Shown: one piece after another, positions 1-42,277 of the stretch | Layout of the letters: the number at the start of each line of letters is the position of its first letter | Position numbering within the stretch: position 1 is the stretch's first letter | IMG/VR virus record: IMGVR_UViG_3300020045_015493 | Location: 1-42,277 of that record | DNA from: a virus | Taxonomy: Duplodnaviria > Caudoviricetes | Reading direction: 5' to 3' (one strand) | DNA: 42,277 bases | Notes under the pieces: generated by a model | What the model was told of the DNA's origin: nothing | Seen by the model: the letters and a program-made list of their open reading frames with translations, nothing else | Database searches by the model: none | Made by a program: the position numbers and the translations under genes

Positions 1-121
1 GCCTACAACGTCAAATGTAACCGAAGTAGCGGAATTAATATAGATGAATTATCAATTTACACTAAAAATTATAAAAATGGAAACACTTAAATTACAGCGA
101 GTAACCCGCTATTTTGGTTAC
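1..121. repeat. Terminal direct repeat (circular assembly overlap), identical to 42157-42277
   Basis: 121 nt GCCTACAAC...TTTTGGTTAC at both ends; 115 nt of it (7-121) also recur at 40165-40279. Confidence 0.95.
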
Positions 122-316
122 CGTCCCGCAGGTATGGAATCGGTTTTTTACGGATTTGAAACGATAAAATAAAATAATATTATGAATAAAATTGAGAAGG
201 CAATATTAACAGAACTTAATGAATGGGATTTATCTTGTTCTGAAGAACCAACCTTGAAAATAGAACTTGCTAAGGTATTGGGAAGAGTAGTAAAAAACTG
301 TTCTATACCTGCTGTT
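122..316 (+). repeat. attC-like hairpin site with a long coding loop; the AA of its AAC is missing
   Basis: GCAGGTATGGAATCGGTTTTTTAC (128-151) pairs with GTAAAAAACTGTTCTATACCTGC (290-312), followed by T-GTT at 314. Confidence 0.75.
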
Positions 317-429: not shown

Positions 430-555
430 AACGTTCCGCAAATAAAACCAGTAAAAGATATGAAAGAAGAAATATTAAGCATTGCCAGCGACCTTAGAGA
501 AGGACACATCACTTCAAATGAAGCCAAACGCCTTTTATTTGTTTTATTTGGTGTT
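430..555 (+). repeat. attC-like hairpin site
   Basis: AAC 430-432; CAAATAAAACCAGTAAAAG (439-457) pairs with CTTTTATTTGTTTTATTTG (532-550); GTT 553. Confidence 0.8.
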
Positions 556-723: not shown

Positions 724-806
724 AACGGCCGGGGCTAAACGCAGCCCTTTGTAGAATTTAATGTTAAACCACTGTCGCTGATCAGGGTTGCGTTTTAGCC
801 CTTGTT
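724..806 (+). repeat. attC-like hairpin site (short, 83 nt)
   Basis: AAC 724-726; GGGCTAAACGCAGCCCT pairs with AGGGTTGCGTTTTAGCCC (one bulged T); GTT 804. Confidence 0.85.
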
Positions 807-1015: not shown

Positions 1016-1061
1016 TTGGCGGTAACTCGTTACTACACGCTATAAAATCATATCAAAAAAC

Positions 1062-2194: not shown

Positions 2195-4102
2195 ATGAAA
2201 ATCAAAATCAGAAAATTTATGGAGCTTTCAGATGTAAATTTTGAAACTCCGGTAAAAATTGAAGCTGGCCACGATGTTGGGAAATCGACAATCTTCAGGG
2301 CTGTTTTATTTGCCATTACTGGAAAGGATATTGACGGCAAGGAATTTGACGGGCGAATATATCCCAAAAAATCTCAATCGCTTTCAGATTTGAATGCCGA
2401 AGTTGAAATTGAACAAAATGGTGTTGTTTTCAACAAAAAAGCAAACGGCAGTGAAAAACGGCAAAAAGGAAGCGATGAAACCGAATTGCAACGGTCGGTA
2501 ACTTCTATTTATTCGATCGATTTTCGAGTTGTCGGAAAGGCTGAATATGATGCCAAAATTTTAGAAGTGTTCGGAAACTTCCATCTTTTTTGCAACCCCG
2601 ATTATTTTCGCAACTTGAAAAAAGAGGACAAAAGAACTATTTTTGCAAGCCTTGTAAAACTTGACAAAAATAGCTACTTCAACGGGCTTTCTGACAAAAA
2701 AACCGTTTCTGGAAAAATCAAAGCGCAAAAAGATGAAATCGACAATTGTAATGCGAAATTATCTGAATTTTCAAAAGTCCATGAGCCGGAAAAAATTGAG
2801 GTTGTGGATTATGATTCTCAACTTGCAGAATTGAGAAAACAACGGGAAAATGCAGAACCGAAATTTACAGATCAGCAATTGAAAGAAAACGATGCAATTA
2901 ATAGGCAAATTTATTTTCTTGAAAAAGAAATATTTATCCCTGAAAAATTCATTCCGCTTTTGCCCGAAATTGAAAAACCTGCTTTGATCGATGTCGATGC
3001 TTTGGAAAAAAAACTTGAAAAAACTCAATTGTCAGAGCCGGATACGGTTTTTATAGATACACAAATTGAGCGAATGAAGGTTAAAATTTCGCAGATAAAA
3101 TCGCTGACTTTGCAGATTGAAAACTACGAAGAAAACGTAAAATCTGCAAAATGTACGTTATGCCAGGTTTGCACGGCCCCGGATTGCCAATTCAAAAAAA
3201 TCGAAATTACTCCGTTGGAAGATTTAAAAAATGAACTTTCAAAATTCATGTCGCTTTTCGATGCTGAAAAGTCACTTGAAAATTTTGAAAGTAAAAAAAT
3301 TGACTATCTCCGGGATTTTGAAGCCAACAAAAATGAAATGATTGCCAGCATTGAACGAGCTATTTCTGATTCAATCAAAAGAAATTCAGATTCATTGGAT
3401 GTTTTTGAATTGAGGTCAGCCGATATTAATGCAATAAATGCCGGAATAGTTGATGAGAATTTCGATATCAATAAAGGCAATTTAAGAATAAAAGCCAATT
3501 TTGAAACCGAAAAAGCACAAAAAATTGCAGACCTTAAAAAACAACTTCACACTTTGCCGGCTTTCGATTATTCTGAAATTGACGATCAAATTGAACAAAT
3601 TGAAAGCTACAATACCTGTCAACAAAATCAAATCGACGGCTATAATGAACTTAACGGGGCTTACATTTACGCTCAAAATCGTACCGTCGTTTTATCGAAT
3701 GATTTGAAACTAATGAAAGAAGCACTTTACGCTTCAGAGCGGGAACTCATCAAAATAGAAAAAGCTGAAAACGATTATTACAATGATTTTGAAAATTTAA
3801 TTAATGCCGAAATGCCAGAAAATGTGCGGGTATCGCTTTTCAAAAAGAACTTGTCGAACGATGACCGCTCTGATGTTTTTGAAATTGAATTTGATGGGTC
3901 TATTTATGCCGGAAATGGTAAAACTATTTCTTTCTATATTTGGCTTTGCTCCTGGTTTCAGTCAAAATTTGAGAAAGACCTGCCTATCTTCATTGACGAG
4001 GCGATAATCCTGAATGAGAAACTTTACACCGATGTAAAAAATACGGTTATCTTGATGCGAAATGATGAATGTAAAACGCTTAAAATTTCGCAAAATGTCT
4101 GA
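2195..4102 (+). CDS. SbcC/Rad50-like (SMC-type) coiled-coil ATPase
   Basis: Walker A GHDVGKST, long coiled coil with central CTLC..C...C hook, C-terminal Walker B PIFIDE. Confidence 0.85.
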   Translation: MKIKIRKFMELSDVNFETPVKIEAGHDVGKSTIFRAVLFAITGKDIDGKEFDGRIYPKKSQSLSDLNAEVEIEQNGVVFNKKANGSEKRQKGSDETELQRSVTSIYSIDFRVVGKAEYDAKILEVFGNFHLFCNPDYFRNLKKEDKRTIFASLVKLDKNSYFNGLSDKKTVSGKIKAQKDEIDNCNAKLSEFSKVHEPEKIEVVDYDSQLAELRKQRENAEPKFTDQQLKENDAINRQIYFLEKEIFIPEKFIPLLPEIEKPALIDVDALEKKLEKTQLSEPDTVFIDTQIERMKVKISQIKSLTLQIENYEENVKSAKCTLCQVCTAPDCQFKKIEITPLEDLKNELSKFMSLFDAEKSLENFESKKIDYLRDFEANKNEMIASIERAISDSIKRNSDSLDVFELRSADINAINAGIVDENFDINKGNLRIKANFETEKAQKIADLKKQLHTLPAFDYSEIDDQIEQIESYNTCQQNQIDGYNELNGAYIYAQNRTVVLSNDLKLMKEALYASERELIKIEKAENDYYNDFENLINAEMPENVRVSLFKKNLSNDDRSDVFEIEFDGSIYAGNGKTISFYIWLCSWFQSKFEKDLPIFIDEAIILNEKLYTDVKNTVILMRNDECKTLKISQNV

Positions 4103-4320
4103 TATTAAAACAAGATTTTCATTTGATCAAAAAGTTTGGTTGATGAAAGATAACAAGACTGAAAATTCAACTATTTCTGTCATAGATGTCAAAAAATACA
4201 AATCTGGGTATCAACAGGAGAAATATGAGCTTTCGGGAATAATAGGAATTTATGATTCTATTTTGCTTTTTGAATCGAAAGAGGAACTTTTAAAATCATT
4301 GTAAAACGCTTAAAATTTCG
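4070..4320. repeat. 21-bp direct repeat flanking gene 4095-4304
   Basis: TGTAAAACGCTTAAAATTTCG at 4070-4090 and 4300-4320. Confidence 0.9.
4095..4304 (+). CDS. Small hypothetical phage protein
   Basis: ORF 4062-4304 with probable ATG at 4095; similar to the C-terminal half of 5534-6022. Confidence 0.7.
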   Translation: MSDIKTRFSFDQKVWLMKDNKTENSTISVIDVKKYKSGYQQEKYELSGIIGIYDSILLFESKEELLKSL

Positions 4321-4325
4321 GAGCT

Positions 4326-4580
4326 ATGAGAGCAATAGTCGATGTACATGGAATTTGTATTGATAATATTGATTCTTTTCGGAAAAGTGCTGAAAACGAT
4401 GAAGGGTTTGAAATCATGATATATAAATCAGGAAAAGATGTGGGAGTGTGGCTTCGGTCCTGTTTTACTGAAAAAGATGCAATAATTATGTTTGACTTGT
4501 CAAGAAAAAACGCAATTTTTTTAGGTCATGCGCTCATCGGTATTTCAAAGACAGTTAAAAGAAAAAATAATAAAAAATGA
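4326..4580 (+). CDS. Hypothetical protein
   Basis: 84-aa ORF within the operon. Confidence 0.7.
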   Translation: MRAIVDVHGICIDNIDSFRKSAENDEGFEIMIYKSGKDVGVWLRSCFTEKDAIIMFDLSRKNAIFLGHALIGISKTVKRKNNKK

Positions 4581-4731: not shown

Positions 4732-5553
4732 ATGAATGAATTAAAACCACTTGGGGAAATCCCCAAAAAAGAATCTGAAAAAGTTCAAGAAGTAAAACCG
4801 ACAACAGAGGACGTTAAAAGAGCGGTCGAAAAACAGGTAAAAGAAGTTTGTAATCCTGAAAAACCTGAAAGTTTCAGCCTGTTGCGAAAAATAAACGGGG
4901 AATTGTTTTTTGAACTTGAATTTTCAACTGGCAAATTGGTTGTTTCGGAATCAAAATGCAACCAGCTAATTCCTGAATTTAAAAAAATGACACCGGAGCA
5001 AAAAGAAACATTTTTAATGCAAGCCGCAATTTTCGGAGCAAATCCATTTAGTGTACCTCCAGAAATTTACCCGCTTCCATTTGAATCGAATGGAGTAACA
5101 ATTATCGCCCCGGTGATTTCGGCAAAAAAGTACATTAATAAAGGGATGGAAAATCCGCAATTTGATGGAATGAAATCAGGGGTTGTGATCGAAAAACAGG
5201 ATGGCAGTTTTGATTTTCGCAGAGGCCAAGTTTTCGGGAAAACAGAAATTTTGAAAGGCGGTTGGGCAGAGGTTTTTATCAAAGGATTGAGGGAACCGAT
5301 TTTTAGGAGCGTAAATATCGAGGAGTTCCAAATGCGAAAAAAAGATGGGACACTTAATAAATTTTGGAACGAAACATCTGGAAAGCCAGCTTTAATGATT
5401 GAAAAAGTCGCTCAAAAGCAAGCGATGGAGATAGCGATGCAAATGCCAAAAACCTACATTGCAGAAGAACTCCCGGTCATCGACATTGAACACGAAGATT
5501 TGACAAATCAAAAAGCCATTCCGGCAAACAACGATGAATTTTTTAATAAGTAA
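4732..5553 (+). CDS. bet: RecT/Bet-family single-strand annealing protein
   Basis: Motifs NPF..EIY, FDGMKSGVV, GGWAEV and W..KPALMIEKVA; located between the SbcC-like and MBL genes. Confidence 0.85.
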   Translation: MNELKPLGEIPKKESEKVQEVKPTTEDVKRAVEKQVKEVCNPEKPESFSLLRKINGELFFELEFSTGKLVVSESKCNQLIPEFKKMTPEQKETFLMQAAIFGANPFSVPPEIYPLPFESNGVTIIAPVISAKKYINKGMENPQFDGMKSGVVIEKQDGSFDFRRGQVFGKTEILKGGWAEVFIKGLREPIFRSVNIEEFQMRKKDGTLNKFWNETSGKPALMIEKVAQKQAMEIAMQMPKTYIAEELPVIDIEHEDLTNQKAIPANNDEFFNK

Positions 5554-9995: not shown

Positions 9996-10346
9996 ATGAA
10001 AAAACAAATTGAAAGTTATTCAGAAATTATAAGTGAGTTTCAAATCCGCGAGTTTGATTTAATAATAGAGAACTTAAAGTTAAAGGAAAATTTTGAAAAT
10101 ATGATTAAAGAAATAGAATTGATTCCAATTGCTCAGGATTTTTGTGATTTTAATCTTTTTTCAATTATTTGCATTCCTTCTACTTTAAGTATCGAAACGA
10201 TTGAATTTATGGTTAAAAACAAATCAGAAATTAAACGAAAATTTACGCTCAAGGAAATATTCGCGTTGGATTTCAATGTCCGGGATTTAAAACCAGAAAA
10301 TTTTAAGTCCTTAAAAAACAAATTAAATGAATTAAAAGAAATATGA
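9996..10346 (+). CDS. Hypothetical protein (paralogue of 10343-10711)
   Basis: Shared C-terminal ET.EF..KNKSE.KRK.TLKE..ALDFN.R.L.P.NF..LK.KL. Confidence 0.75.
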   Translation: MKKQIESYSEIISEFQIREFDLIIENLKLKENFENMIKEIELIPIAQDFCDFNLFSIICIPSTLSIETIEFMVKNKSEIKRKFTLKEIFALDFNVRDLKPENFKSLKNKLNELKEI

Positions 10347-10711
10347 ATAGTTCAATTTTTTTAGAGTCTGAATTGATTAATTTTTTTAACCTTAAATATG
10401 CAGAATCTTTTTTTGAATTTTTTAACATGATAAATGAATATGAGAGGTTGACATATATTGCTAATATTATGAATGAAGCCCAATACTATTGTTCTTTTAA
10501 TATTTTTTTGGCATTAAATTATTCACAATATATAAAAATAAGATTTGAAACGTTTGAATTTATCGCAAAAAATAAATCAGAATTAAAACGCAAATTGACT
10601 TTAAAAGAAGTTGCTGCCCTTGACTTCAATATCCGCTATTTACAACCAACAAACTTTAATGATTTAAAACTAAAATTAAAAAATGAAAAATCAATTCATT
10701 CCACGCCTTGA
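10343..10711 (+). CDS. Hypothetical protein (paralogue of 9996-10346)
   Basis: Same shared C-terminus; ATGA overlap with the upstream gene. Confidence 0.75.
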   Translation: MNSSIFLESELINFFNLKYAESFFEFFNMINEYERLTYIANIMNEAQYYCSFNIFLALNYSQYIKIRFETFEFIAKNKSELKRKLTLKEVAALDFNIRYLQPTNFNDLKLKLKNEKSIHSTP

Positions 10712-36139: not shown

Positions 36140-36820
36140 TTACCCATTTTTTAAAATCCTCTTCAGGTTTGATTTTTGGTGTACTACCGTAATTTTTTCA
36201 AGTTTTGCGATCAACTGGAGTGCTTTCTCTTTTGAAGGTTCTGGTAGGTGGTGATTTTTACTGTCGTTTCCAATGTTTATTTGTGAGGGGTTGCATCTTT
36301 TAATTAAATTTACCATTTTTTCCAAATCAAAATCCATAATAGGCTCAATTGTAATATGTTTTTCAAACCCATTTATCCTCGACATCCATTTTGCCCGTTC
36401 CTGTGGTGTTGGTGTGTTGCCCATATATTCTGGATACCAACGGTTTGTCTCAATTGTCGTGCAAATAATTGAATCTTCGGGCAATAAATCAATAAATTTA
36501 CACAACCTTTCAGGGTTTTTAGTTTGAAAGAAATATTTATTCGATGGATATTTATTGCAATGGCTTAAAATATCACGGATAATGCCATTAATGATATTTT
36601 CTTCAAACAAATCATTTTGAGCTACTACAAAAATAGTTTCTCCTGATCCAAGGTTTTTTAGTTCTTTTTCTATTAATTTTGGCCTGCCTGAATATTTTTC
36701 TACAAATGCAGGATACCGCAAAAAACTCAAAGAACTGCAATACCCACATTTGTGCCTACATTCTCCGCCAAGAGGATTCCACGGTTTTGCAAACTCATAC
36801 ATATTACCTTTTTGTTTCAT
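36140..36820 (-). CDS. Gp37/Gp68 (DUF5131) radical-SAM-like phage protein
   Basis: WNPLGGECRHKCGYC (CxxxCxxC), QTKNPER, TIEPI. Confidence 0.85.
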   Translation of the reverse strand: MKQKGNMYEFAKPWNPLGGECRHKCGYCSSLSFLRYPAFVEKYSGRPKLIEKELKNLGSGETIFVVAQNDLFEENIINGIIRDILSHCNKYPSNKYFFQTKNPERLCKFIDLLPEDSIICTTIETNRWYPEYMGNTPTPQERAKWMSRINGFEKHITIEPIMDFDLEKMVNLIKRCNPSQINIGNDSKNHHLPEPSKEKALQLIAKLEKITVVHQKSNLKRILKNG

Positions 36821-36859: not shown

Positions 36860-37270
36860 ATTTTAAACATCAATCAAAATAAATGATTTTTAAATTACCT
36901 CACTGTTTTTTAATTTTACCGATCACTTTTTTAATATTTCCTCTTATATTTTATATTTTATATTTATAATATATTATATATCAATAAGTTATATATATAA
37001 ATCGGTAAAAAAATAATAGGTATTATTAATAGAAAAAAAATAAAAATATATACATTAATGGAAAAATTTTTTCCCTTTTTACCGTTTTGGCTTAATTTGC
37101 TGAATTTCAATATTTTGTTGTCGGTAAAAAATATTTTAAAATCGGTAAAAATTTGGATTTTTACCGGGTGTTTTTGGTGTTGTGTGTTTTTTAACGGTAC
37201 TACTATTAATATAATGTAAAAAATAGGTGTTTTTTACCCGGTTTGGTTAAAAATTTTTACCGATAAAAAA
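36860..37270. other. Putative replication origin: AT-rich region with TTTTACCG iterons
   Basis: TTTTACCG/CGGTAAAA at ~36914, 37002, 37076, 37121, 37142, 37158 and 37254, plus a variant at 37231; non-coding, between divergent operons. Confidence 0.65.
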
Positions 37271-37361
37271 TTAGCCACAATGATTACGGGCGAAAATATG
37301 CAGATAGAACTGTACTGCTGCAATATATTTTTTAAATATTTAAAAAATATATTGAAATATG

Positions 37362-37393
37362 TTTGCATTATTCAAAAATATGTGTTATCTTTA
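37362..37393 (+). promoter_or_regulatory. Bacteroidota promoter TTTG-N20-TATCTTTA
   Basis: One mismatch to the -33/-7 consensus; 30 nt before ATG 37424. Confidence 0.6.
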
Positions 37394-37423
37394 CTTCATC
37401 AAATAACAATAAAACATACAACG

Positions 37424-37585
37424 ATGAAAACGGCAGAATTAAAAAACAAAGTAATTGCAAAGTTAATCACAGGTGGTAATAATGTAGAAGATGTTAATAA
37501 TATGGTTGCAAAGCATTTTGAATATGCAGCAAGTAAATACAGCACAGTAAAAACAATTTGCGAATGTATCAGAACAATATATTAA
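37424..37585 (+). CDS. Hypothetical protein
   Basis: ORF 37280-37585 with probable ATG at 37424 after the promoter. Confidence 0.65.
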   Translation: MKTAELKNKVIAKLITGGNNVEDVNNMVAKHFEYAASKYSTVKTICECIRTIY

Positions 37586-37974
37586 AAACTAAAGGCGGAA
37601 AACGTAAAGGGGCTGGCAGAAAGTTAGCCCCTTATAAAACCACTACGATTGCTTTTAGGGTTCGTATTGATTGGATTTCTGAACTAAAAAGCTTAATAAA
37701 TAACCGAATAAAAGAACTTAAATTAAAAGAAATGAAAACTTACTCATTGATCAAAACAAAGGATGGTGAACGCAAAGGAACTGAAATTTCACATTTCATT
37801 GGTGAAAATGAAAATGATCCTAAAATGCTGGATGAAGTGAAAACTTACCTAACTGAATGGCTGAATAGTTATACAAGCATTTCGGATGAAGAAATTTCCG
37901 ATTTGTTCTCTGCCTTCGCTGGCAGTTTTTCCTATGACGTTTGGATTTTTGAATTAATCGAAAATGACAATTAA
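37564..37974 (+). CDS. Hypothetical protein with N-terminal GGKRKGAGRK DNA-binding-type motif; possible second start at 37732
   Basis: ORF track; basic N-terminal half and acidic C-terminal half. Confidence 0.6.
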   Translation: MYQNNILKTKGGKRKGAGRKLAPYKTTTIAFRVRIDWISELKSLINNRIKELKLKEMKTYSLIKTKDGERKGTEISHFIGENENDPKMLDEVKTYLTEWLNSYTSISDEEISDLFSAFAGSFSYDVWIFELIENDN

Positions 37975-38155
37975 AGAACTCAAAAAAGAACTTGATTTAA
38001 CCAATAAAGACATAGCCGGGTTCTTTGGCTTGTCGCCTACTGTGTACGCAAATTCAAGCGCAAAAACACGTTATGAAGCTGTACTCTGTCAATTTTTAAA
38101 ATATGTTAAAAAGAAACTCAATGTAGAAGAACAGAGCGACTTAAATAACCCATAA
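37964..38155 (+). CDS. Small HTH-like protein
   Basis: IKELKKELDLTNKDIAGFFGLS; stop codon lies in the TAAC of the first array site. Confidence 0.6.
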   Translation: MTIKELKKELDLTNKDIAGFFGLSPTVYANSSAKTRYEAVLCQFLKYVKKKLNVEEQSDLNNP

Positions 38156-38276
38156 CGGTCGCAAATACCAGCAGTTAGGGATAAAAAGCTCTGACCTGTC
38201 GAGCTGGCAAAAAGTAACAAAAGAGCTTTAAACAATGGCAACGCACGAATACCTTAATTGACTGGTATTTGTTGTT
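38154..38276 (+). repeat. attC-like hairpin site (123 nt)
   Basis: AAC-GGTCG-CAAATACCAGCAGTTAGGG pairs with CCTTAATTG(A)CTGGTATTTG-TT-GTT. Confidence 0.85.
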
Positions 38277-38300
38277 AACGCCAGTTATTTGTCAATCAAA

Positions 38301-38864
38301 ATGCAAACAGTGACTTTTAAGATGAACGGACTTACCTATAATAATTATAGGTTAATTAGAAATTTAGACGAATACTCTGAATTTTTAAAAGAACTAAACA
38401 ATAAATTCACTTTATCTGATGCTGAAATAAAAGATAGGCATGAAAGAAAATACATAGGACATGATTCAACACTCCTTACTTCTATTGCCGAATTTTTCAG
38501 TATAAACGACATTGAGCCATTATCTTTAGATGAAATATTATTGCGATCTAAAATACTTTATGGACGAGTATTATCAGACCAGCTAAAAGATATTTGCAAT
38601 GGTTGCAGTTTAGCCATAAACGATAAAGGTGGTTATTTCCCAATAAAAATTACCGACCATATTTATATAGTATCATCTAATGATATAAAAGAATTTACCG
38701 TGAAAGACATTAAAATATCAAGATGGGCGAATGGACGGCATTTTTACGCTAAGGTCGGGAACATTGATGTTGTCGATAGCGATGGAAATGTAAAGTGGAA
38801 TACTCACTATGCTGCTAAGAGAGAGTCTAATCGGTTTTTAGAAAAACTAAATAATTCTAAATAA
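38301..38864 (+). CDS. Hypothetical cassette protein
   Basis: ORF 38289-38864; ATG at 38301, 27 nt after GTT 38274. Confidence 0.75.
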   Translation: MQTVTFKMNGLTYNNYRLIRNLDEYSEFLKELNNKFTLSDAEIKDRHERKYIGHDSTLLTSIAEFFSINDIEPLSLDEILLRSKILYGRVLSDQLKDICNGCSLAINDKGGYFPIKITDHIYIVSSNDIKEFTVKDIKISRWANGRHFYAKVGNIDVVDSDGNVKWNTHYAAKRESNRFLEKLNNSK

Positions 38865-38896
38865 AATGGCAGAAACTACCCACAAAACTTTATACA

Positions 38897-39190
38897 ATGA
38901 ACGAAAATTTTAACACAAACGAAACTGACAACAAAGTGATTGATTTTATTAATTATCACGCAGCAAGTTATGTAAATGAATTTATGAACGGTGATTCAAT
39001 AACGAGAGCAAGAATGCAGGAAATTTTAACATCTTTTGGAAAACAATTGCTTGACTGCTATCCGTGCGATGTAAAAGAAACTCTCTACGAGAGTAGTAAC
39101 TGCATTAAACCTGATGTTAGCAAACGTCATCTAATCAAATTATTAAAGATATGGAAGGCAAGCATCCCGAATACCATATTGATGTCGTAA
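38897..39190 (+). CDS. Hypothetical protein reading through a degenerate site (CIKPDV|SKR)
   Basis: GTT at 39116 is an in-frame Val. Confidence 0.65.
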   Translation: MNENFNTNETDNKVIDFINYHAASYVNEFMNGDSITRARMQEILTSFGKQLLDCYPCDVKETLYESSNCIKPDVSKRHLIKLLKIWKASIPNTILMS

Positions 39191-39251
39191 AAAGTTATCT
39201 CGATTATGCGTTGTTAGTGCCAGTATTTTGTTGAATATTAATAATTTATAT

Positions 39252-39584
39252 ATGAAAAAGCAAAAATTATACTTTAGTGATTTCGATGAAGAAAGAGCTT
39301 ATACGCTTGATTACATCATTGATGAAATGAAAGAAAGAGAACTTACAGAATGTGAAGTAGCTGTTGCAACCAGAGACACTGATAAAAGTTATTTCTTTTG
39401 CAGAGCAGTACAGGAAGTTTGCGTTAAACCACCAGAAGGAGAACCATGTGGAAAAGAATGTTGTGACTACGAACCAAGAAATGGGAAGAATGGGTGCTGC
39501 AAATTCAGAGGTTTTTGTTATGAGCCATCTGATCGAAAATTTATTCTTAAAATTAATGGAAAACTTTCGCTATTGCCGTTTTAA
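39252..39584 (+). CDS. Cys-rich hypothetical cassette protein
   Basis: ORF 39228-39584 with probable ATG at 39252; 9 Cys; follows GTTAGTGCCAGT at 39213. Confidence 0.75.
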   Translation: MKKQKLYFSDFDEERAYTLDYIIDEMKERELTECEVAVATRDTDKSYFFCRAVQEVCVKPPEGEPCGKECCDYEPRNGKNGCCKFRGFCYEPSDRKFILKINGKLSLLPF

Positions 39585-39667
39585 TGGGGCTTAACGATTT
39601 GTATATAAGCCGTATTTATTTTATTATCAGTTATAAGTAAAATAATTTAAAAATAAACAGTAAATAG

Positions 39668-39698
39668 TTTGTAAATACAAAGTAAATAACTATTTTTG
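39668..39698 (+). promoter_or_regulatory. Bacteroidota promoter TTTG-N19-TATTTTTG inside the array
   Basis: Exact -33/-7 consensus, 34 nt upstream of ORF 39733. Confidence 0.75.
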
Positions 39699-39732
39699 TT
39701 GAGCAATAATGCAATAACTTATTTTTTATATT

Positions 39733-40005
39733 ATGAAAACTGATATTATTAAATTTTGCTTGTTTGACAGAAAGCCAAACGCAAAAGAACTGTACTACAA
39801 CGAAGATGGTATGATGTATATGTGCGATTCTCCTGAAAAAAATAATGAAATTGGATGGCCAGGCCGAAAGATATACACAATTATACCAACATTAGAAAAA
39901 ACAAATCTTTCCATTGAAGAAATGAAAGATTTGACTGCTTTTGTTTGGAAAAATAAAGTGAAAGACGGAACTGTAATTAATATTAAACACAGTTTTGAAG
40001 TATGA
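39733..40005 (+). CDS. Hypothetical protein
   Basis: 90-aa ORF after the promoter. Confidence 0.75.
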   Translation: MKTDIIKFCLFDRKPNAKELYYNEDGMMYMCDSPEKNNEIGWPGRKIYTIIPTLEKTNLSIEEMKDLTAFVWKNKVKDGTVINIKHSFEV

Positions 40006-40154
40006 AAACTAAAAAAGTGACAATAAGCCTTACAGAAGAACAGCAACAACAGGCTAAAGAGATAAGCAAAGAACTACTTGGTAATCAAAACATATCTGGG
40101 TTATTTGCTTTTTGGATAAATCAACACCTAAAGAAACGCTCGAAGGCTTCTTAA
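40002..40154 (+). CDS. 50-aa ribbon-helix-helix-like protein
   Basis: MKTKKVTISLTEEQQQQAKEISKELLGNQNISGLFAFWI; ATGA-coupled; below the ORF-track cutoff. Confidence 0.6.
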   Translation: MKTKKVTISLTEEQQQQAKEISKELLGNQNISGLFAFWINQHLKKRSKAS

Positions 40155-40164
40155 TATGGTGGCT

Positions 40165-40287
40165 AACGTCAAATGTAACCGAAGTAGCGGAATTAATATA
40201 GATGAATTATCAATTTACACTAAAAATTATAAAAATGGAAACACTTAAATTACAGCGAGTAACCCGCTATTTTGGTTACATATTGTT
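40165..40287 (+). repeat. attC-like hairpin site (123 nt); first 115 nt duplicated at 42163-42277 / 7-121
   Basis: ATGTAACCGAAGTAGCGG pairs with CCGCTATTTTGGTTACAT; GTT at 40285. Confidence 0.85.
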
Positions 40288-40651
40288 AGCTACCGTGCTA
40301 TTTTCATCTTGCTTAAAAAGAGTGGCTGAATTGAAGCACGAAAAAGGTATCGTAGTTGCAAAACAATATCAAGGAGAAATAAACACAACTGCAACTGGGG
40401 TTGGAATGTCAACATCTGGAAATATGGTTGCAACAACTCATTCCATACATGAAGATGCCAAATTTAACGTAGTGTTTAAATGTGAACATGGAGTTATATT
40501 CACTATAAACAGTGATGAAGTTTACCTTAAAGTAAAAGAAGGCGATACTGTTACAATTGATTATTATGAAATGCTAAATAAAAAAGGTGAGGTAAAGGAT
40601 TTCGATTTTATTGATGCTAATAAATGCACGAAGGCTGCCCAATCATGGTAG
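40202..40651 (+). CDS. Putative lipoprotein whose signal peptide starts inside the hairpin
   Basis: METLKLQRVTRYFGYILLATVLFSS|C lipobox-like (second ATG likely); body flanked by GTTAGCTACCGTG / CATGGTAGCTAAC. Confidence 0.7.
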   Translation: MNYQFTLKIIKMETLKLQRVTRYFGYILLATVLFSSCLKRVAELKHEKGIVVAKQYQGEINTTATGVGMSTSGNMVATTHSIHEDAKFNVVFKCEHGVIFTINSDEVYLKVKEGDTVTIDYYEMLNKKGEVKDFDFIDANKCTKAAQSW

Positions 40652-40653
40652 CT

Positions 40654-40775
40654 AACGGTGAGTGTAACCGCAGTAGCGGATTAAAAAGTAATAACCTATC
40701 AAATTAAACTAACATGAATAAAGAGCAGAAAACTTCGCACCCCACAGAACCCGCTATTGCGGTTGACACTGTGTT
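40654..40775 (+). repeat. attC-like hairpin site (122 nt)
   Basis: GTGTAACCGCAGTAGCGG pairs with CCGCTATTGCGGTT(G)ACAC; GTT at 40773. Confidence 0.85.
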
Positions 40776-41007
40776 AGCACCATTATTTGTTTATGAATTT
40801 CTTTATAATTCGGATTGTTGCGAATGTGCAGCATTGACTATAAGTATTCACAAAACAAAGAAAGGTGCTGAAATGGCAATGGAGTTTCATAAAAACGAAA
40901 AACTAAAAGAGTGGGAAGCGGAATGTAAAAAATATTTATCTTCAAAAGAATATCCATTTGATTTTGACCAATGGTGGGGTGTTCGTGAATGCGAGTTGCT
41001 TCCTTAA
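40714..41007 (+). CDS. Hypothetical cassette protein starting inside the hairpin loop
   Basis: Reads AVDTV|LAP through the site; body flanked by GTTAGCACCATTATT / AATATTAGTGCTAAC. Confidence 0.75.
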   Translation: MNKEQKTSHPTEPAIAVDTVLAPLFVYEFLYNSDCCECAALTISIHKTKKGAEMAMEFHKNEKLKEWEAECKKYLSSKEYPFDFDQWWGVRECELLP

Positions 41008-41017
41008 TATTAGTGCT

Positions 41018-41141
41018 AACGGTTTTGCAGCTATGCAACGGCATGGGGTTAAAAGCACTTCCCTATCAACCGTTGAAAAATTAACTAAGTGCTATAATGT
41101 TGGCTAACCACGTAATCCATGCTGTTGTATGAGGTTCTGTT
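41018..41141 (+). repeat. attC-like hairpin site (124 nt)
   Basis: ATGCAACGGCATGG pairs with CCATGCTGTTGTAT; GTT at 41139. Confidence 0.8.
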
Positions 41142-41164
41142 ATAGCCAGTTAATACTTTAAATC

Positions 41165-41383
41165 ATGATAAAATTAGACACTTACACAGACGAAAATGTA
41201 TTTGAAGAAGCAAAAAAATACATAAAATCGAATTTGAAAACAGGTGATTACTACACAACATCAATGCTTCAAAGAACTTATAGCATTGGTTATAATAAAG
41301 CTTCTCGAATTTTAGAAATGCTAAGTAAAGAAAAAATCATAAAATTTAGTTCTGATAGAGTGAAAGCTCCGATGGTTCTTTAA
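41165..41383 (+). CDS. Stand-alone FtsK gamma (winged-helix) domain protein
   Basis: TTSMLQRTYSIGYNKASRILEMLSKEKII matches the FtsK-gamma consensus S.S.LQR...IGYNRA.R....L...G.V; flanked by GTTATAGCCAGTTAA / TTAATTGGCTATAAC. Confidence 0.8.
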   Translation: MIKLDTYTDENVFEEAKKYIKSNLKTGDYYTTSMLQRTYSIGYNKASRILEMLSKEKIIKFSSDRVKAPMVL

Positions 41384-41391
41384 TTGGCTAT

Positions 41392-41513
41392 AACGTTGGT
41401 GGTATGGTTAGTTGCCGATTGCGGGCTACTTTCCTATCAAATTACAGATAATTACAAGCGGGTGGTAACGCTTAAATTTAGTACTAATACGGCAATTAAC
41501 TATACCACGGGTT
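41392..41513 (+). repeat. attC-like hairpin site (122 nt)
   Basis: GTGGTATGGTTAGTTGCCG pairs with CGGCAATTAACTATACCAC; GTT at 41511. Confidence 0.85.
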
Positions 41514-41540
41514 AACTGCTGGCTTTTAATTAATTATCAA

Positions 41541-41837
41541 ATGACACGAATAGAAATTGAACAAAAAAGAAAAGAAAACTTTGATAAAATCGAAGAACTT
41601 AAAAAGGAAAATATTGAGCTTTATAAACAAGCAATGGTTATATCTGACGAAAAACAATGGTTTACTGAAGAAATTGAATCGCATCCAAAAGCTAAATATC
41701 AAAGAGAACCGAATTATTTAGATGGTAAATTGGTAGGACGCATTCATTGGAATGAGGATTTTAAAGACGAAGATACTGGCAAGTTAATTACCATTGAACG
41801 TTCTCAATTAGTAAAAGTTGACGGTGAGTGGGTTTAA
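41541..41837 (+). CDS. Cassette protein with an RpoB-like WxEDFxDEDTG..IER motif
   Basis: WNEDFKDEDTGKLITIER; flanked by GTTAACTGCTGGCTT / AAGCTTGCAGTTAAC. Confidence 0.7.
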   Translation: MTRIEIEQKRKENFDKIEELKKENIELYKQAMVISDEKQWFTEEIESHPKAKYQREPNYLDGKLVGRIHWNEDFKDEDTGKLITIERSQLVKVDGEWV

Positions 41838-41847
41838 GCTTGCAGTT

Positions 41848-42046
41848 AACGTATGGTGGTATGAGTATGTTTTTTAACCGATAAAATAGAACGAATATGA
41901 AAGCACATGAATTTATAAGAGAAACATTTGATTTAGACAACAGGACAAGTATAAGTGAACTACCTGATTTACCAATTTCATTAATAGTAGAAATGCTTAA
42001 TAATTACAAGGAAGGTAAGGTTAAAAAATTACTTATACCACGTGTT
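41848..42046 (+). repeat. attC-like hairpin site with a long coding loop (199 nt)
   Basis: GTGGTATGAGTATGTTTTTTAACC pairs with GGTTAAAAAATTACTTATACCAC; GTT at 42044. Confidence 0.85.
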
Positions 42047-42154
42047 GTAGGGCGAAGCGAACAGTTAATTTGCCCTCATTGCGGAAAATATAAAAGCCTG
42101 CAAGGTAATGGAATTATGCACCAACTTTGTGAATGTGGAGAACAAGCAAATTAA
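41897..42154 (+). CDS. Cassette protein with a C-terminal Zn ribbon (CPHC...CEC); starts inside the hairpin loop
   Basis: Reads LLIPRV|VGRSEQL; GTT at 42044 is in frame. Confidence 0.75.
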   Translation: MKAHEFIRETFDLDNRTSISELPDLPISLIVEMLNNYKEGKVKKLLIPRVVGRSEQLICPHCGKYKSLQGNGIMHQLCECGEQAN

Positions 42155-42156
42155 TT

Positions 42157-42277
42157 GCCTACAACGTCAAATGTAACCGAAGTAGCGGAATTAATATAGA
42201 TGAATTATCAATTTACACTAAAAATTATAAAAATGGAAACACTTAAATTACAGCGAGTAACCCGCTATTTTGGTTAC
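42157..42277. repeat. Terminal direct repeat (circular overlap with 1-121)
   Basis: Exact match to 1-121. Confidence 0.95.

Follow-up and report, generated by a model that had tools for sequence, protein, structure and literature searches.

Integrons, exemplified by the class 1 and Vibrio chromosomal systems, consist of the recombinase IntI and its attI and attC sites. In the available text of the papers cited here, attC sites are imperfect AAC..GTT hairpins with an unpaired central spacer (PMC5027507, PMC2727003), one strand of which carries the G.T wobbles, has the lower folding energy and takes the crossover at its AA/C; each unit holds one small gene, and a single terminal non-hairpin site lies by the tyrosine recombinase. 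Clusters of attC sites lacking integrases (CALINs) have been published in phages and tested with IntI1, one of these phages infecting Polaribacter (Qi et al. 2023, PMC9892861). Here we analyse an array of attC-like hairpins in the virus record IMGVR_UViG_3300020045_015493 (Duplodnaviria; Caudoviricetes), all 42,277 nucleotides of which form the window of this study. It is likely an array of swappable cassettes, each a hairpin with the gene downstream of it, that would be rearranged by a trans-supplied integron-like tyrosine recombinase cutting at AA/C, with entry of cassettes at a half-site at 1024.

The array works like an integron in which two defining features, the IntI insertion and the extrahelical bases, are lacking and a third, gene orientation, is inverted. 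It shares with integrons the properties listed above, the AA/C crossover as a predicted one and the recombinase beside the terminal site as seen in its relatives. Unlike integrons, the phage arrays carry their genes on the folding strand and directed toward the attI-like site, about one third of the genes start inside a hairpin, the sites are mostly without extrahelical bases and the enzyme has no IntI insertion. The window also has the CALIN layout of at least two attC-type sites on one strand with no nearby integrase, as in the published phage clusters, whereas the available text of PMC9892861 describes typical co-oriented arrays with some divergent sites and contains no systematic gene reversal, dedicated insertion-less recombinase or hairpin-internal gene starts. 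The Treponema integrons with inverted integrase likewise have an unusual orientation within the platform (Cury et al. 2016, PMC4889954; compare locus L219 below), but as far as that text goes it is a true IntI that is turned, whereas the phage arrays have their cassette genes turned with respect to the sites. Finally, L-box attC recombination (Escudero et al. 2016, PMC4792948) resembles a candidate junction described below, both placing the exchange at the second position where a folded site can be cut; the available account concerns a laboratory attI1 x attC reaction, whereas the joins reported here are natural, hairpin to hairpin and of one register. A literature search, thin on subscription journals, found no paper on reversed phage cassettes, an insertion-less Bacteroidota integron or an L-box junction.

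Anatomy of the array

The record, all of which makes up the window, has direct terminal repeats and was read as a circular phage contig: positions 1-121 and 42157-42277 are one sequence (a 121-nt end overlap), so that the two ends of the array are continuous. Nine attC-like hairpins (S2-S10) run from 40165 through this overlap to 806 and are followed by the attI-like half-site at 1024. Nine full sites have the attC-type architecture, in which AAC and GTT cores flank an imperfect inverted repeat made up of R and L stems around a central spacer left unpaired. The features, in order along the circle and all on the + strand, are as follows.

38154..38276, +: S0, full hairpin site from AAC to GTT, belonging to the older stretch upstream; stem of the 2 G.T type; + strand -14.9 vs -11.5 kcal/mol
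39586..39610, +: a left arm alone or a half-site, with AAC at 39593; no partner arm found
40165..40287, +: S2 hairpin site, which supplies the start codon(s) and the opening 17-28 codons of the gene that follows
40202..40651, +: S2 cassette gene, 149 aa, with a lipoprotein-like signal peptide (judged by eye) that has its first half coded by the hairpin; no Pfam or PHROG match
40654..40775, +: S3 hairpin site, its 3' arm carrying a bulged G; gene 40714-41007 begins within it
41018..41141, +: S4 hairpin site, imperfect, followed by gene 41165-41383 (FtsK gamma domain)
41392..41513, +: S5 hairpin site, followed by gene 41541-41837; a 95% identical hairpin with other flanks lies in jumbo phage LR756500.1
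41848..42046, +: S6 hairpin site, 199 nt; gene 41897-42154 begins within it
42163..42277, +: S7, copy of the S2 hairpin shortened in its right arm; same DNA as 7-121
121..122, +: S7/S8 junction, S7 right arm joined to the C of the S8 AA/C; candidate L-box x R-box crossover
122..316, +: S8 hairpin site without its AA; gene 182-415 begins within it
430..555, +: S9 hairpin site; gene 460-711 begins within it; unit 429-727 recurs in another sample
724..806, +: S10 hairpin site, 83 nt, followed by gene 830-1015
1024..1045, +: terminal attI-like half-site, AAC then T, no hairpin; the next gene is a 64-aa orphan, 1062-1256

Five of the genes (starting at 40202, 40714, 41897, 182 and 460) begin within a hairpin and read through its right arm, and three (41165, 41541 and 830) begin past it. 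The preliminary description of this DNA had the array start with a full site and end in the half-site at 1024. The half-site stands, but the array reaches further upstream, where an older part comprises the site at 38154 and remnants at 39113, 39210 and 39593. The two orphan right arms near 39113 and 39210 (38897-39230) lie in or before small genes with no matching left arm and look like decayed cassettes. The duplicated hairpin was described accurately: the identical run is exactly 115 nt long counted from AAC, the upstream neighbours differ and, with the end overlap merged, there are two copies.

In 8/8 cassettes the bases 3' of each GTT pair with those 5' of the next AAC, and mostly do not pair with the left flank of their own site, as expected if the stretch between two sites had once been closed into a circle. 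The segments 804-819 and 1011-1026, presented in the preliminary description as a hairpin stem, are of this kind: they do carry a wobble on the + strand, but they are the outer flanks of one cassette and would pair only in the excised circle. The consensus of the site family was built from 260 sites. At 7 nt outside the AAC and GTT cores, the base before the left core is a conserved T (93%) and the base opposed to it after the right core is a G (66%), a further wobble that only the coding strand of an excised circle could form.

The cassette gene at 41165-41383 encodes a stand-alone FtsK gamma domain (PF09397, E 7e-12), which we take to be the module that reads KOPS (FtsK-orienting polar sequences), and may interfere with host chromosome segregation. 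It is the sole cassette gene to pass the Pfam cut-off in the Pfam and PHROG searches.

Strand polarity of the sites

The stem mismatches of the array are mostly G.T on the + strand, as the preliminary description had stated. With the inner stems aligned under a score that treats G.T and C.A alike, the nine stems hold 17 G.T and 4 C.A, and the three arm pairs that had been quoted (40175-40190/40264-40279, 41399-41417/41490-41508 and 804-819/1011-1026) hold 2, 2 and 1 G.T wobbles on the + strand and zero C.A. Folding energies computed with DNA parameters, the check proposed with that description, favour the + strand in 8/9 sites.

The same asymmetry is found in a larger set, in which sites were called strand-neutrally in 151 loci. 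Keeping the 82/110 neighbouring pairs with matching flanks and dropping 17 with unclear gene direction left 111 distinct sites, oriented by gene direction alone. The coding strand of these sites carries 204 G.T vs 36 C.A, with more G.T in 100/111 and more C.A in 1 (p 8e-29; sites not fully independent). G follows AAC in 108/111, the 5' spacer is the longer one in 109/111, and the coding strand is lower in energy in 99/111 (mean -2.2 kcal/mol). A polarity caller returned 121 sites in 40 loci vs 3 in shuffles of those loci. In attC sites, according to the available text of PMC5027507, the wobble-rich, more stable strand is the recombining strand.

Unit of movement and break points

A comparison of 527 viral and metagenome site contexts gave 271 pairs with enough common words, 107 of them intermediate or unrelated. 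The hairpin and downstream sequence are common and the upstream sequence different in 14 pairs (11 clusters), while the upstream sequence is common and the hairpin and downstream sequence different in 8 pairs (5 clusters). The identity switch point falls within T-A-A-C-G. Thus 22 pairs (16 clusters) break at the upstream TAACG, vs 0 pairs in which upstream gene and hairpin are common and the downstream gene differs, in agreement with the proposal that a cassette is a hairpin plus its downstream gene. The outcome that the preliminary description had named as its refutation, a hairpin travelling with its upstream gene, is the one seen in 0 pairs. Bacterial loci point to that side too, by 17 and 10 pairs vs 1 and 1. 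A first co-segregation test on complete bodies only (19 pairs among 134 bodies, 18 with both hairpins shared and 1 unclear) was uninformative and was replaced by these flank-wise tests.

Individual loci place the boundaries more closely. Both ends of one cassette are visible in loci L033 and L052. In the window the cassette at 429-727 recurs as a block in another sample, while other contigs diverge from it at 427-428 and past 727-739. The site at 122 opens with the lone C of an AAC, and another sample has TAA before that position, which bears out the earlier observation and gives the crossover position to a single base. Together these sequence comparisons are those expected of cassette movement by crossover at the AA/C of the favoured strand.

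Gene orientation in phages and bacteria

Genes lie on the folding strand in 80/98 viral cassettes (2 opposite, 16 ambiguous) and in 9/13 metagenome cassettes, and 40/41 viral loci are reversed in this sense, with 1 tie. In bacterial genomes only 8/118 cassettes with the same site family have the gene on the folding strand vs 106 opposite, and 28/30 loci are opposite. The site thus has a single polarity, and which way the gene points goes with the location of the array, phage or chromosome. The usual cassette layout, with the gene upstream of attC on the non-recombining strand, is not the layout of the viral arrays. The preliminary description called these sites the reverse of canonical integrons; this applies to gene direction but not to the crossover, the chemistry of which is canonical (AA/C on the G.T-rich strand, bacterial arrays alike), and only the genes are flipped.

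Two further cases are of note. In L075 (minus-oriented, 3900-4350) one phage cassette gene adjoining the attI-like site has the bacterial orientation, making it a candidate for recent capture from a host array. The site contexts of L126 and L226, one in a viral contig and one in a genome bin labelled Deltaproteobacteria, are identical; the latter is probably a phage contig that was binned together with a bacterium.

The linked recombinase and the attI-like half-site

No PF00589 match or remnant of a tyrosine recombinase was found in this phage, and tblastn with the array-linked enzyme of its relatives was negative. In other loci a motif scan placed tyrosine recombinases directly past the arrays of L002, L075 and L104 and adjoining a 13-site bacterial array in L219. 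The phage enzymes are Xer-like proteins of 267-268 aa. Linked recombinases score 152-159 on TIGR02249, for which the cut-off for IntI is 265, and the linked recombinase is about 48 residues shorter than VchIntIA (PDB 2a3v) across the IntI insertion. The linked enzyme is thus not IntI.

The association with the sites has a fixed geometry. Among viral recombinase loci (the best 80 of 224), same-strand sites lie upstream in 55/58 with at least 1.5 kb of upstream sequence, and a site lies downstream in 1/80. A half-site occurs within 150 nt of the recombinase in 49 of these best 80, with T after AAC in 44. The half-site at 1024 is of the same class (T after AAC), and the 64-aa orphan stands where relatives have the recombinase. 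By this likeness the 1024 half-site would be an attI-type site from which the recombinase itself is missing. The suggestion that the genes point toward the insertion site fits this order, in which the terminal half-site comes next and then, in relatives, the recombinase.

Homologues of the recombinase occur in 41/151 sampled genomes of the class of the L219 host, and together with the absence of the gene here this makes supply in trans plausible. Of 30 fetched bacterial loci, 9 carry an opposite-strand site in the 1.5 kb downstream, and none of the three remaining arrangements occurs. In L219 (1560-1620, Flavobacteriaceae) the attI-like site lies about 50 nt past the recombinase stop, whereas in phages it lies before the start codon; the L219 recombinase runs the same way as its cassette genes.

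Proposed mechanism and alternative explanations

In the arrangement that we favour, a recombinase from the host or from another phage would act in trans and would cut the folded coding strand at AA/C. New cassettes would join at the 1024 half-site, the 3' end of a transcription unit driven from upstream, and each would bring its own start, within or just past the hairpin. Since it is the coding strand that folds, each hairpin makes up the 5' leader of the gene behind it. If the phage genes run with replication, the coding strand would be the lagging-strand template, on which the site would be single-stranded in the cell; in integrons, the available text of PMC5371416 reports, lagging-strand-template orientation raises cassette turnover.

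Several observations weigh against this interpretation. In S9 (430) the minus strand folds better (-11.0 on + vs -12.8 on -), and S3 (40654) is nearly even (-18.2 on + vs -17.8 on -). The first 16 stem columns hold no bulged base in 394/518 viral and 139/218 genome sites, and the 2-3 extrahelical bases that attC has on one L-stem arm are not the pattern here, bulges being found on both arms (the aligner may place some extrahelical bases in the spacer). Most sites thus lack the signal by which attC is known to select its strand, and strand choice rests on the wobbles and the spacer asymmetry. The loci were seeded by site patterns or by the recombinase and are a non-random phage sample, 21/30 bacterial recombinase loci have no site within 1.5 kb (8 of them have less than 700 nt downstream), and the assignment of the phage host rests solely on the distribution of the same sites. 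In a sequencing-run search the best run covers 8% of the contig words, with no RNA run among the matches listed. Finally, there is a boundary at the other end of the hairpin: only the hairpin is common in 134 pairs (41 clusters), with a boundary directly past GTT(A), and only the body is common, behind differing hairpins, in 8 pairs (3 clusters). With this second, rarer boundary a hairpin is not permanently tied to its gene and the left-end crossover is not the sole event.

The GTT boundary is what would be expected if the geometry were canonical, with the hairpin belonging to the upstream gene and the main crossover at G/TT (AA/C on the non-coding strand), and Logan contigs with matches confined to a hairpin (41847-42046, 40163-40290) or to a body (42043-42156) fit that arrangement as well. 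It is nevertheless very improbable, given 0 pairs with upstream gene and hairpin vs 22 left-end breaks, and with wobbles, energy and the terminal half-site all favouring the coding strand. Shuffling between similar hairpins by homology, through a RecT/Bet-like annealing protein and with no site-specific enzyme, would suit a phage that has an annealing protein and no tyrosine recombinase and in which S2 and S7 are identical across 115 nt. However, the breaks fall in a 5-nt core between unrelated flanks and unrelated hairpins, and the arrays are tied to one recombinase family with a fixed geometry, so we give this explanation very little weight, although the annealing protein may contribute to hairpin/body swaps. 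The least probable explanation, and one that we find hard to credit, is that the hairpins are RNA structures for translation control or processing and that G.U pairs, normal in RNA, cause the coding-strand bias. Start codons do lie inside five hairpins, but 106/118 bacterial cassettes carry the same polarity on the non-coding strand, so that it follows the site and not the transcript; moreover, the breaks lie at the AAC core and an Rfam search of 37000-42277 gave no match. The hairpins may nevertheless have a side effect on translation.

Within the cassette array that we favour, the GTT boundary would rather mark a second, less frequent event or the point at which cassettes are originally assembled. 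It is also seen for S2, S5 and S6 of the window. The S2 hairpin family gives a start and the first 17-28 codons to at least 7 different bodies, several of them with signal-peptide-like ends. A frame runs out of the hairpin in 182/527 contexts vs 14 on the other strand, and where hairpin-only pairs have a frame leaving the hairpin it is the same in both in 46/51 (pairs non-independent). The 8 body-only pairs (L346, L351, L355, L356, L331 and L332) are short, similar, apparently non-coding bodies behind different hairpins. A hairpin/body swap at the L-box cut was considered and rejected: positions -8 to -5 stay with the hairpin (90-100% identity, 134 pairs).

The junction at 121/122

Counting the last T of GTT as -1, the S7 right arm stops between -9 and -8 and is followed directly by the C of the S8 AA/C. 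The junction yields a 42-aa chimeric frame (44-172) that begins with the part of the S2 gene coded by the hairpin and ends in a misplaced tail. Two register-blind scans (21 and 66 rows, mostly decayed or mis-called ordinary sites) gave two more joins, in L044 and L323, both compatible with the -9/-8 register, with the C assignable to either partner (as also in L449). A further scan, built on the predicted register, gave 26 matches, 1 of which, within the contig L387, is an unambiguous case. An open scan with gaps of 0-8 gave 70 matches, of which 1 has both hairpins, again the L387 contig in the same register; one further sequence, from two samples, has this register with no left arm within 400 nt, and no join at another register was found in that scan. 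The junction pattern run over 384 loci gave 0 matches.

As reported in the available text of PMC4792948, L-box exchange between attI1 and attC with IntI1 in the laboratory accounts for 1/607 recombinants, and 3/642 with an extrahelical base removed; the second cut by IntI is blocked by the extrahelical bases and the I2 insertion (PMC4792948, PMC2727003). The linked recombinase family is without I2 and the sites are mostly without bulges. Within the limits of small numbers and of what sequence can tell, the 121/122 junction is probably a product of L-box cleavage, a rarer exchange at the second cutting position of the enzyme that would have deleted the body of the S7 cassette. An assembly or library artefact at the contig end is an unlikely explanation, if one that retains some weight, since 121/122 falls exactly at the end of the 121-nt overlap and the L044 case lies only 119 nt from a contig start. 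However, a real branch point between intact and recombined hairpins would itself make an assembler break there, and the same register is found inside the contigs L323 and L387. The junction and the recurrence of its register in three more contigs are new here, as is the pairing of one hairpin with unrelated gene bodies.

More speculatively, there may be a second integron lineage in Bacteroidota and their phages, in which an I2-less recombinase cuts both arms, usually at AA/C, so that whole cassettes move, and sometimes 6 nt before GTT, leaving 121/122 and the three contig scars, and in which the phage hairpins are re-usable gene fronts. Each front would bring a start codon and a portion of a signal peptide and would be fused in frame, at GTT, with bodies unrelated to it. 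We regard this wider possibility as somewhat less likely than not. If true, such fusions would show in natural DNA how cassettes arise, and would offer a means of shuffling protein N-termini.

Phage genome and surroundings

The genome carries the tailed-phage markers terminase, portal, head protease and tail genes together with RecT/Bet-like genes, the annealing protein gene lying at 4732-5553. The host may belong to Bacteroidota, to judge only by where the same hairpin family occurs, mostly in Bacteroidota genomes. Among GenBank phages only 3 records match the array; LR756500.1 does so through one hairpin and Cellulophaga phage phi19:3 through a piece of 46 nt. The 635-aa gene at 2195 led to two phage relatives (74-79% identity), neither of which has an array in front of that gene, and there is therefore no empty-site comparison. 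An exact search of viral contigs with the S2 left arm gave 0 matches, and the 24 matches to the head of S8 were every one unrelated or due to chance. A promoter scan gave 20 sites vs 23.7 expected, with models that were not built for Bacteroidota promoters.

Elsewhere in the window, inverted repeats at 37142-37167 and 37236-37273 fall where the late and early regions diverge, in the AT-rich gap that separates them, and may be an origin or a regulatory element. A 157-nt direct repeat (10186-10342 and 10539-10695, 71% identity) shared by two neighbouring small genes suggests gene duplication, and a DUF5131 radical-SAM-like gene on the minus strand (36140-36820) adjoins the terminase genes.

Implications

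On the accepted view of integrons, strand choice serves the insertion of cassettes in sense behind a promoter, and it is I2 and the extrahelical bases that let hairpins recombine and yet block the second cut. In the present family the direction of the genes on one kind of site differs between bacteria and phages, the enzyme is I2-less and the sites are mostly bulge-free. In a phage array an incoming bacterial cassette would read antisense, as would a phage cassette in a bacterial array, so that the two pools would be kept apart while the chemistry is common to both. The natural joins, as probable L-box products, predict a second cutting position, and the occurrence of one hairpin with many gene bodies bears on how cassettes are made.

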